Shown piece by piece: positions 43,497 through 45,082 of a stretch of DNA of 64,000 nt. The DNA is taken from the IMG/VR virus record IMGVR_UViG_2526164690_000025; one strand, given 5' to 3'. A model generated the notes under the pieces. The model ran no database searches, was not told where the DNA came from, and was given only the letters and a program-made list of their open reading frames with translations. The translations under genes and the position numbers were made by a program. How positions within the stretch are numbered: the stretch's first letter is position 1; each line of letters opens with the position of its first letter. Source of the DNA: a virus. Its lineage: Duplodnaviria > Heunggongvirae > Uroviricota > Caudoviricetes.

Positions 43497-43513
43497 ATTG
43501 CTCTAATAAATTT
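43497..43513 (+). promoter_or_regulatory. C1-operator-like site, perfect consensus
   Basis: ATTGCTCTAATAAATTT 17/17; overlaps inverted second site. Confidence 0.65.
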
Positions 43514-43529
43514 GATTTATTAGAGCAAA
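43513..43529 (-). promoter_or_regulatory. C1-operator-like site, inverted partner (bipartite palindromic operator)
   Basis: Reverse complement TTTGCTCTAATAAATCA, 14/17. Confidence 0.55.
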
Positions 43530-43689
43530 TAAACTACCATCGAACGCCAGACTATTGATCTTCCTGTTGTTCAGGCTTATAGTTCCTACGTCGTAGTAAA
43601 TTCTGCGACCGGGTTTGACAGCCTGAATGTACATGCGGACAACCGCAGATATCCGATATTGCGGTATTTTTGTGTCCGTAAACCACGTT

Positions 43690-43775
43690 ACGCCCGAATT
43701 ATGGTGGGGCGTGATGGGGAGGCTTCGGCCTGCTGGTTTCATGTACGCCAGTCTGTCAACCCCGTCACGTCCTGC
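43690..43775 (+). ncRNA. c4-like antisense RNA region, copy 2 (boundaries approximate)
   Basis: Same architecture as copy 1 but specificity box catgtac (43740-43746) complementary to gtacatg (43629-43635; 43812-43818). Confidence 0.45.
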
Positions 43776-43829
43776 CACCTGTTTGACAGCGGGTAGCAGG
43801 TTGTTAAACCTGTACATGAGGCCGTAACT

Positions 43830-44051
43830 ATGGTTAATGCCAATCCTTGCGCACGCCCTGAATTTATCTGGCGCTTTTACTCCTGCCAGAAACGTCACTA
43901 TCACTTCGTTATTGCACCGACAGAAGATGAGGCTCGCTCTCAGCTTCCGGATGCACCCTGTATTTTCTCTGCCCGCTTTTCCACTTATTCACGCAATTCT
44001 CTCAGTTACTGGTGCCTCCCTGTTAACGCTTCTGCTCAGGAGGGACTATGA
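43830..44051 (+). CDS. icd: Icd-like small protein (73 aa), copy 2
   Basis: 73 codons, about 80% identical to 16140-16361; stop overlaps ant start (ATGA). Confidence 0.6.
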   Translation: MVNANPCARPEFIWRFYSCQKRHYHFVIAPTEDEARSQLPDAPCIFSARFSTYSRNSLSYWCLPVNASAQEGL

Positions 44052-45082
44052 GAACATCGTTAGTTACCCGTGAAGAGATGATCGAGGCAATTGAACAGCA
44101 CACTGCCTGTATCAGTACCAGGGATATACCTGGCGTTATTGCCAACTACTTCATGATCACCAAACAACTTTACCGGAGAAAGGACAAGAACGCGGTTCAC
44201 CGTATCCTGTTGTCTGATATCCGCGAATACCTGCTCGAACAGGGGCATCTGAATTACGCAACCGTCGCAGCCGAAACACGCAAGGAGGCACACAGAATGA
44301 AAGCAAGCAAACCAGATGTTGTCGTTACAAAGCCTTTGACAGCAACCACACCAGCACCGGTCATGGATGCTATCCCCAACACCGGAGACACAATCGACAG
44401 CCAGACGCTGTTAAAGATGGTTAATGAGGCGCGTAAGTTATGTGGGGAACCATTAGTAAGAAATAATAAGTTTATTGAGAAGGTTGTAGATGAGCTTGAA
44501 GGTGAGACCTACACAAAAAGTGTAGGTCGCAAAAATGGTGCAAACATAGACATTATCACCATGACTTTCAAACAAGCCCTGCGAGTCGCCGCGCGCGAGT
44601 CAAAAGCGGTCCGCCGTTCGCTGATCGACAAACTGGAAGAATTGCAGCAGGCTAGCACGGCTTCTCCAGCGATCCCCCAAACACTCCCCGAAGCACTGCG
44701 CCTGGCTGCCGAGTTGGCAGAACAGAAAATGCAGTTGGAACAACAGCTGGTGGCCGCCGCCCCTAAAGTCGATTTTGCCGACCGGGTATCAGTGGCCAAT
44801 GGAATCCTGATCGGGAACTTTGCAAAGGTCGTTGGACTTAAGCAAAACGCCCTTTTCTCATGGTTGCGCCAGAATGGCATTCTCATGGCTTTTGGAGCGC
44901 GCAAAAACGTACCGCGCCAACAGTACATCAACGCCGGGTATTTCACGGTGAAAGAAGTGGTGCTGGATGATGAAAATGGCTACCAGATACGGTTGACGCC
45001 TCAATTAACGGGTAAAGGCCAGCAGTGGTTGACGCGTAAACTACTCGATGCGGGTGTATTAAAGCCCGTGGCGGCTGAATGA
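44048..45082 (+). CDS. ant: antirepressor (Ant-like), copy 2
   Basis: 344 aa; ATG overlaps icd stop; C-terminal antirepressor domain shared with copy 1 and KilA-like protein. Confidence 0.8.
   Translation: MRTSLVTREEMIEAIEQHTACISTRDIPGVIANYFMITKQLYRRKDKNAVHRILLSDIREYLLEQGHLNYATVAAETRKEAHRMKASKPDVVVTKPLTATTPAPVMDAIPNTGDTIDSQTLLKMVNEARKLCGEPLVRNNKFIEKVVDELEGETYTKSVGRKNGANIDIITMTFKQALRVAARESKAVRRSLIDKLEELQQASTASPAIPQTLPEALRLAAELAEQKMQLEQQLVAAAPKVDFADRVSVANGILIGNFAKVVGLKQNALFSWLRQNGILMAFGARKNVPRQQYINAGYFTVKEVVLDDENGYQIRLTPQLTGKGQQWLTRKLLDAGVLKPVAAE

Follow-up and report, generated by a model that had tools for sequence, protein, structure and literature searches.

P1-like phage-plasmids are common in Escherichia coli and Salmonella, often carry resistance genes, and are thought to owe their patterns of coexistence, displacement and induction partly to the specificity of the immI operon. 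The immI operon of phage P1 (c4-icd-ant1/ant2) was reportedly described by Citron and Schuster in 1990. The C4 antisense RNA is processed by RNase P, and P1 immI is subject to Rho-dependent polarity. Here we describe a second operon of this kind in a 64-kilobase (kb) stretch of DNA (64,000 nucleotides; hereafter the window) from IMG/VR virus record IMGVR_UViG_2526164690_000025, which sequence comparison identifies as a P1-like phage-plasmid collinear with E. coli plasmids pE2865-1 and p88_0502-1. The window holds two leader-icd-ant modules, copy 1 at 15.8-17.4 kb and copy 2 at 43.5-45.1 kb, and we report the anatomy and family membership of copy 2, the complementarity and covariation of its regulatory boxes, the purifying selection on its genes and the prevalence of such modules in related elements.

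As annotated (NC_005856), immI of P1 has the same part order as copy 2: C1 operator, promoter, a first pair of target boxes (a1/b1), the 77-nucleotide C4 RNA, a second pair (a2/b2) over the icd ribosome-binding site, icd, and the ATGA-coupled ant1/ant2. The two operons share the a box TTGACAG, and Ant of copy 2 is 80% identical to Ant1 of P1. They differ in the b box, which is GTTAGTG in P1 and GTACATG in copy 2, in the operator, which is monovalent in P1 and palindromic (bivalent) in copy 2, and in location, since P1 immI is a sole module between sim and kilA whereas copy 2 is an additional module downstream of ban/dbn. The immI region of P7 also has the architecture seen in copy 2. P7 is heteroimmune to P1, and small compensatory box changes alter specificity (PMC12197685); P7 differs from P1 by 2 nucleotides in a and 2 in b, whereas copy 2 differs from copy 1 by none in a and 4 in b.

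We consider it likely that 43497-45109 constitutes a second immI-type operon, complete and maintained by selection, in a plasmid lineage with as many as five modules of differing key. Because its b key GTACATG departs from the canonical key of copy 1 at 4 of 7 positions, each C4 RNA would be expected to control mainly its own Ant. The expected benefit is twofold: a prophage with several C4 keys would silence the Ant of more kinds of incoming relatives, and an incoming phage with several Ant keys would escape any resident missing one of them.

Anatomy of copy 2 and comparison with copy 1

An earlier note on this DNA, made from the sequence alone, had pointed to a second immI-like module, and all parts of a complete one are present in copy 2. 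The module opens with a palindromic C1 operator (43497-43529, both strands) composed of ATTGCTCTAATAAATTT on the + strand (43497-43513) and TTTGCTCTAATAAATCA on the - strand (43513-43529). The first site has no mismatch to the C1 operator consensus and its inverted partner has three, C1 binding being predicted, and the arms 43498-43511 and 43515-43528 form a 14-nucleotide perfect inverted repeat. A consensus scan placed a sigma-70-type promoter, TTGATC-17-TATAGT, at 43555-43583 (+ strand), aligned with the promoter that the P1 annotation names P1c4 (formerly P51b); by our own reading of the sequence, a weaker candidate promoter, TTGATT-17-TACCAT (43512-43540), overlaps the operator. The upstream target region (43577-43635, + strand) comprises the c4-a1b1 motif (RF03163, 43577-43629; 52.0 bits against a gathering score of 46.7) with a1 (TTGACAG) at 43615-43621 and b1 (GTACATG) at 43629-43635.

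The C4 antisense RNA gene occupies 77 nucleotides (43703-43779, + strand; ends mapped from the P1 c4 annotation) and contains b' (CATGTAC, 43740-43746) and a' (CTGTCAA, 43753-43759). The Rfam C4 family (RF01695) matches at 43697-43782 with 70.7 bits against a gathering score of 45. At the sequence level, the sole support for RNase P processing to about 77 nucleotides comes from the conserved stem and the 3' GCCACC of this RNA. In the downstream target region (43783-43829, + strand), a2 (TTGACAG) lies at 43783-43789 and b2 (GTACATG(A)) at 43812-43819; the GTACATG, which ends at 43818, directly abuts the icd Shine-Dalgarno sequence GAGG, which precedes the icd ATG (43830) by nine bases. The icd homologue (43830-44051, + strand) is an intact open reading frame of 73 amino acids, 81% identical to Icd of copy 1, and encodes a cell-division inhibitor whose translation is coupled to that of ant. 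It is overlapped at its stop codon, in ATGA, by ant1 (44048-45082, + strand), likewise an intact open reading frame, of 344 amino acids, with an in-frame ant2 start at 44297 preceded by AAGGAGG and a Pfam KilAC domain in its product (E = 8e-31). A predicted bidirectional hairpin terminator (45088-45109, both strands) ends the module.

Copy 1 is the canonical immI operon (15808-17394, + strand, from the operator to the end of ant1/ant2); it is followed by kilA and repL and is 94% identical to the operon of P1 and 93% identical to that of P7. It has a single C1 operator (15808-15824) and in this resembles P1 and P7, whose annotated operators ahead of c4 are monovalent. On the + strand there follow a1 (15924-15930) and b1 (GATTGTG, 15938-15944), the C4 gene (16013-16089) with b' (CACAATC) at 16050-16056, a2 (16093-16099) and b2 (GATTGTG, 16122-16128), icd (16140-16361), and ant1/ant2, which extend to 17394 (ant1 from 16358). 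Both leaders scored above the gathering score in the Rfam C4 scan, RF01695 matching copy 1 at 16007-16092 with 68.4 bits (threshold 45), and RF03163 matches copy 1 at 15885-15938 with 47.1 bits (threshold 46.7). The key of copy 1 is a hybrid of a P1-type a box and a P7-type b box. A run of five A's (16361-16365) immediately after the ATG of ant1 in this copy causes a 1-nucleotide frameshift with a stop after 10 codons; the ant2 frame is open. Each of the 54 related sequences compared reads AAAAAA or AAAACA here, against the five A's of the window, and p88_0502-1, in which ant1 is annotated as intact, is one base longer than the window over a 3.4-kb stretch containing the site. Either a sequencing error in the homopolymer or a recent loss of function may account for the frameshift, which leaves two working antirepressors not assured in this particular sequence.

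When the two leaders (263 nucleotides in copy 1, 261 in copy 2) were aligned over the conserved block, which opens immediately behind the -35 hexamer, as far as the icd ATG, 241 of 261 aligned positions were identical, the remainder being 20 mismatches, with 2 indels besides. The six 7-nucleotide boxes listed in the earlier note proved exact in position and sequence on direct check, and its proposal that they differ in a compensatory manner held once indels were handled: 12 of the 20 mismatches are 4+4+4 changes in b1, b' and b2 that keep complementarity. Outside the boxes there are 8 differences in about 240 nucleotides (about 97% identity). A second box set, which that note had not mentioned (TTGACAG in a1 and a2, CTGTCAA in a'), is identical in the two copies.

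Minimum-free-energy folding predicts the same three-way shape for both 77-nucleotide C4 RNAs (-42.2 kcal/mol for copy 1 and -45.1 kcal/mol for copy 2), with b' in a 9-nucleotide hairpin loop and a' in a 7-nucleotide single-stranded linker. The predicted cognate duplexes between the b loop and b2 reach -11.7 (copy 1) and -11.9 (copy 2) kcal/mol, against -4.1 and -5.5 kcal/mol for the non-cognate ones (the latter for copy-1 C4 on the copy-2 target), which are thus 6-8 kcal/mol weaker. The a-segment duplex is predicted at -9.2 kcal/mol for either C4 on either a2.

The C4-icd-ant mechanism has been summarised previously (PMC8198154, PMC12197685), and we infer RNA processing and repression along the same lines for copy 2. 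A transcript from the constitutive promoter, and probably also one from a C1-repressible promoter, would be cleaved to release the 77-nucleotide C4 RNA, whose b' (CAUGUAC, in the loop) and a' (CUGUCAA, in the linker) would pair with a2/b2 of the same transcript type and thereby mask the icd ribosome-binding site. Translation of icd would then be blocked and the coupled Ant1/Ant2, which would otherwise inactivate the C1 repressor, would remain off.

Covariation of the boxes and selection on the module

Differences among five aligned leaders (the two window copies, P1, P7 and D6) are almost confined to the a and b boxes and are always compensatory. The a box is TTGACAG in P1, D6 and both window copies and TTAGCAG in P7; the b box is GTTAGTG in P1, GATTGTG in P7 and copy 1, ACTTACG in D6 and GTACATG in copy 2. 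The b key of copy 2 represents a specificity distinct from that of copy 1, as had been proposed, and also from those of P1, P7 and D6.

A pattern scan of IMG/VR that left the box positions free returned 117 loci, 106 of them leaders with all three sites. In every one of these 106 complete leaders, a1 equals a2 and the reverse complement of a', and b1 equals b2 and the reverse complement of b'. They comprise 2 a types and 7 b types, and 12 of the 14 possible combinations are present. Among 32 distinct leaders, all 448 cells of the pairings a1/a'+b1/b' and a'/a2+b'/b2 are Watson-Crick (448/448); both sides have changed in 8 of 14 pairs, and changes on one side only number 0. A control in which the partner columns were slid gave 26-51% pairing. 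The test is not circular, because leader extraction did not require complementarity, and complementarity of the boxes by chance is excluded. Alignment and covariation together thus support the earlier reading of the compensatory box changes as a signature of the P1/P7 C4 antisense mechanism.

The genes of copy 2 are under purifying selection: compared with paralogues, the ratio of nonsynonymous to synonymous divergence (dN/dS) is 0.16-0.31 for ant and 0.02-0.08 for icd. Synonymous divergence (dS) of icd between the window copies reaches 1.4, yet the adjacent leader differs at only the 8 positions given above outside the boxes; the leader RNA is therefore far more constrained than synonymous sites, even as the boxes have been replaced. 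Ant is itself mosaic between the copies (44048-45082 versus 16358-17394): its N-terminal half has a dS of about 1.7, compared with about 0.3 for the C-terminal KilAC half, whose protein sequence is nearly the same in both. This pattern suggests recombination or gene conversion between modules. The pacB-c1 and c8-mat modules of pE2865-1 are 95-97% identical to copy 2 in icd and in the N-terminal portion of ant.

Multiple modules and the possible independence of their keys

Two differently keyed copies in one element had been regarded as unusual, a view that the relatives contradict. A leader-only query of PLSDB found 683 places in 575 records, and 10 records in an even sample of 60 leader-bearing ones (about one in six) have two or three leader places; some IMG/VR contigs have three or four leaders. 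Plasmid pE2865-1 carries four icd-ant modules, and p88_0502-1 has five Rfam C4 matches whose keys are all different. Two of these five correspond to the window copies, namely the canonical immI (a TTGACAG, b GATTGTG) and the module downstream of dbn (a TTGACAG, b GTACATG). The other three lie outside the window: one between c8 and mat (a TTGACAG, b ACTTGTG), one beside mat (a TTAGCAG, b ACTTACG), and one between pacB and c1, which has an isrK-type leader with divergent a and b boxes and an ant with an internal stop. Coordinates of the icd-ant modules beyond the window ends are 9027-10607, 14279-15815 and 17327-18917 (L132) for p88_0502-1, and 20323-21897 (L129) and 2069-3653 (L130) for pE2865-1.

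Modules recur at at least four defined sites. In other plasmids the c8-mat site carries b GTACATG, GTTAGTG or ACTTACG with either a type, so that keys vary within a site. The PLSDB modules that are about 89% identical to copy 2 were considered as possible occupants of the same site, a placement that was rejected since they lie between c8/cre and mat. Co-resident modules differ only in b in some cases (p88_0502-1) and only in a in others (pE2865-1), and no key shared between modules of one contig or plasmid was seen among the multi-module IMG/VR contigs, pE2865-1 and p88_0502-1.

The earlier note took the two modules to imply heteroimmune antirepressor controls, and heteroimmunity of the window copies stands as a candidate reading. 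It is possible, though in our judgement unlikely, that either C4 represses both ant operons through the shared a box, copy 2 then being a redundant, dosage or backup copy. The a1, a2 and a' boxes are identical in both copies, the predicted a-segment duplex rivals much of the b interaction in strength and has equal energy in all combinations, and partial cross-repression is accordingly possible. Moreover, the tested heteroimmune pair P1/P7 differs in both boxes, a property that the window copies do not share, and any independence of the latter depends entirely on the b box. These points weigh against mainly separate control. On the other hand, each of the three sites carries changes at 4 of the 7 b positions in leaders that are otherwise about 97% identical, a pattern difficult to account for unless b specificity is under selection. 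The large predicted loss of energy in non-cognate b duplexes, the almost free assortment of a and b types, and the co-resident modules set apart by b only or by a only likewise argue for keys that act separately.

Somewhat less probable still is that the C4 RNA is all that counts in the extra modules, widening immunity to incoming relatives, with Icd and Ant as dispensable cargo. Each additional C4 would give the prophage immunity whatever Ant does, and the pacB-c1 module of p88_0502-1 has kept a C4 that, although divergent, matches RF01695 at 75.9 bits while its ant is a pseudogene. Purifying selection on both icd and ant of copy 2, and the retention there of translational coupling and of the Ant2 start, speak against it. 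Finally, we regard as very improbable that copy 2 is a decaying passenger duplicate, a neutral recombination relic of two heteroimmune P1-like phages: P1-like plasmids are highly mosaic, Ant is mosaic too, and some relatives' modules are pseudogenised, as copy 1 ant1 is frameshifted here, but the parts of copy 2 are all intact with perfect three-site complementarity, its icd/ant dN/dS is 0.02-0.31, 23 complete genomes of several serotypes share its junction at 99-100% identity, and modules occupy defined sites at which keys vary.

We therefore retain the reading of copy 2 as a maintained, separately keyed immI-type operon, noting as a further point against it that the frameshift in copy 1 ant1 and the ant pseudogene in one p88_0502-1 module indicate that not all modules are kept intact. 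More tentatively, phage-plasmids of this group might carry "key rings" of 1-5 modules, written in a two-box code (2 a types by at least 7 b types, plus the isrK-type leader) at four or more fixed sites, with the key set forming a dominance hierarchy that drives key accumulation and diversification. If this were so, an element would be immune to any relative that has no key beyond the element's own and would break the immunity of any resident without one of its keys. The consistently different keys of co-resident modules are no more than suggestive, as there are about 24 non-independent pairs with a chance identity of 0.12 per pair, giving about 3 expected matches (P ~0.04), and the pattern is confounded by the tendency of each insertion site to have its own module lineage.

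Genomic setting and relation to known systems

Identity between the window and pE2865-1 is 99% across a 34-kb block with both modules and 94-98% in the other matching blocks; for p88_0502-1, from an O111:H11 strain, it is 99.95-99.99%. The possibility that the window is a cointegrate of two different phages was rejected, given its collinearity with these single P1-like plasmids of about 99 kb. Copy 2 lies between a dbn-like gene, itself downstream of the dnaB homologue ban, and a baseplate gene on the opposite strand. Of 5426 complete E. coli genomes, 23 contain the dbn-to-copy-2 junction with 99-100% identity; they represent several serotypes of Shiga toxin-producing E. coli (STEC), and most are O111, O103 and O157 strains of cattle or human origin. 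The dbn-like gene directly upstream of copy 2 (window 42452-43450) shows sub-threshold similarity to a Pfam group 1 glycosyltransferase family (E = 1.5e-5) and is labelled a glycosyltransferase family protein in some RefSeq records.

The window contains eleven C1-operator-like sites with no more than 3 mismatches, where chance alone would give 0.3; among them is another overlapping inverted pair at 37858-37885, upstream of the transfer RNA (tRNA)/ban region. Four tRNA genes (38541-38784 and 40732-40804) bear the p88_0502-1 annotations Asn, Tyr, Thr and Ile; the second of them (38621-38704), 84 nucleotides long, has a low score of 42 bits. An IS10-type element at 5403-6738 in the tail/baseplate gene region, with RNA-OUT at 5448-5517 on the - strand, is annotated as ISVsa5 in p88_0502-1, which carries a second copy, missing from the window at about position 62510; the element is absent from pE2865-1. 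An Rfam IS009 match (192 bits; window 1011-1209, - strand) in the tail-fibre region is also present in p88_0502-1. Window positions 1-992 gave no long match to p88_0502-1 or to the half of pE2865-1 that was compared, and may be an invertible or variable tail-fibre segment.

Additional modules in P1-like elements have been remarked on before. A second c4-icd region was mentioned in one sentence for pYU39_89, a D6-like plasmid prophage (PMC6799933), and icd-ant homologues in pSvP1, as well as ant between pacB and c1 in pTZ20_1P and RCS47, were noted in passing (PMC6906374). The pYU39_89 and pSvP1 remarks came without analysis of boxes, keys, insertion sites or module number. The isrK/C4-like leader found with orf45-anrP of Gifsy-1 (RF01394) is of the type that precedes the icd-ant pair in the pacB-c1 module of pE2865-1 and p88_0502-1; this leader type lies outside the window and has unrelated box sequences, and IsrK is reported to act as an activator, not a repressor (PMC12197685).

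A query made up of the leader and the dbn end matches in about 11% of complete E. coli genomes. To our knowledge, experiments on immI specificity have covered only P1 and P7. The leaders compared here show at least 12 a/b key combinations that co-vary perfectly at the three sites, and several keys are stacked in single plasmids. These keys provide a concrete, testable model for superinfection hierarchies, in which the ecological payoff of a key set would probably lie in governing which related phages can enter or shut out one another, and they form a natural set of short antisense RNA/target pairs that may act independently of one another.

Our literature search turned up no study analysing the keys of modules that reside together, which does not prove that none exists. 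The C4-icd-ant mechanism is known; neither the arrangement of several keys nor the combinatorial a/b code appears to have been described beyond the passing remarks cited above. Copy 2 is thus a new specificity variant of the well-known P1/P7 system, and the multi-key architecture is a modestly novel extension of it.

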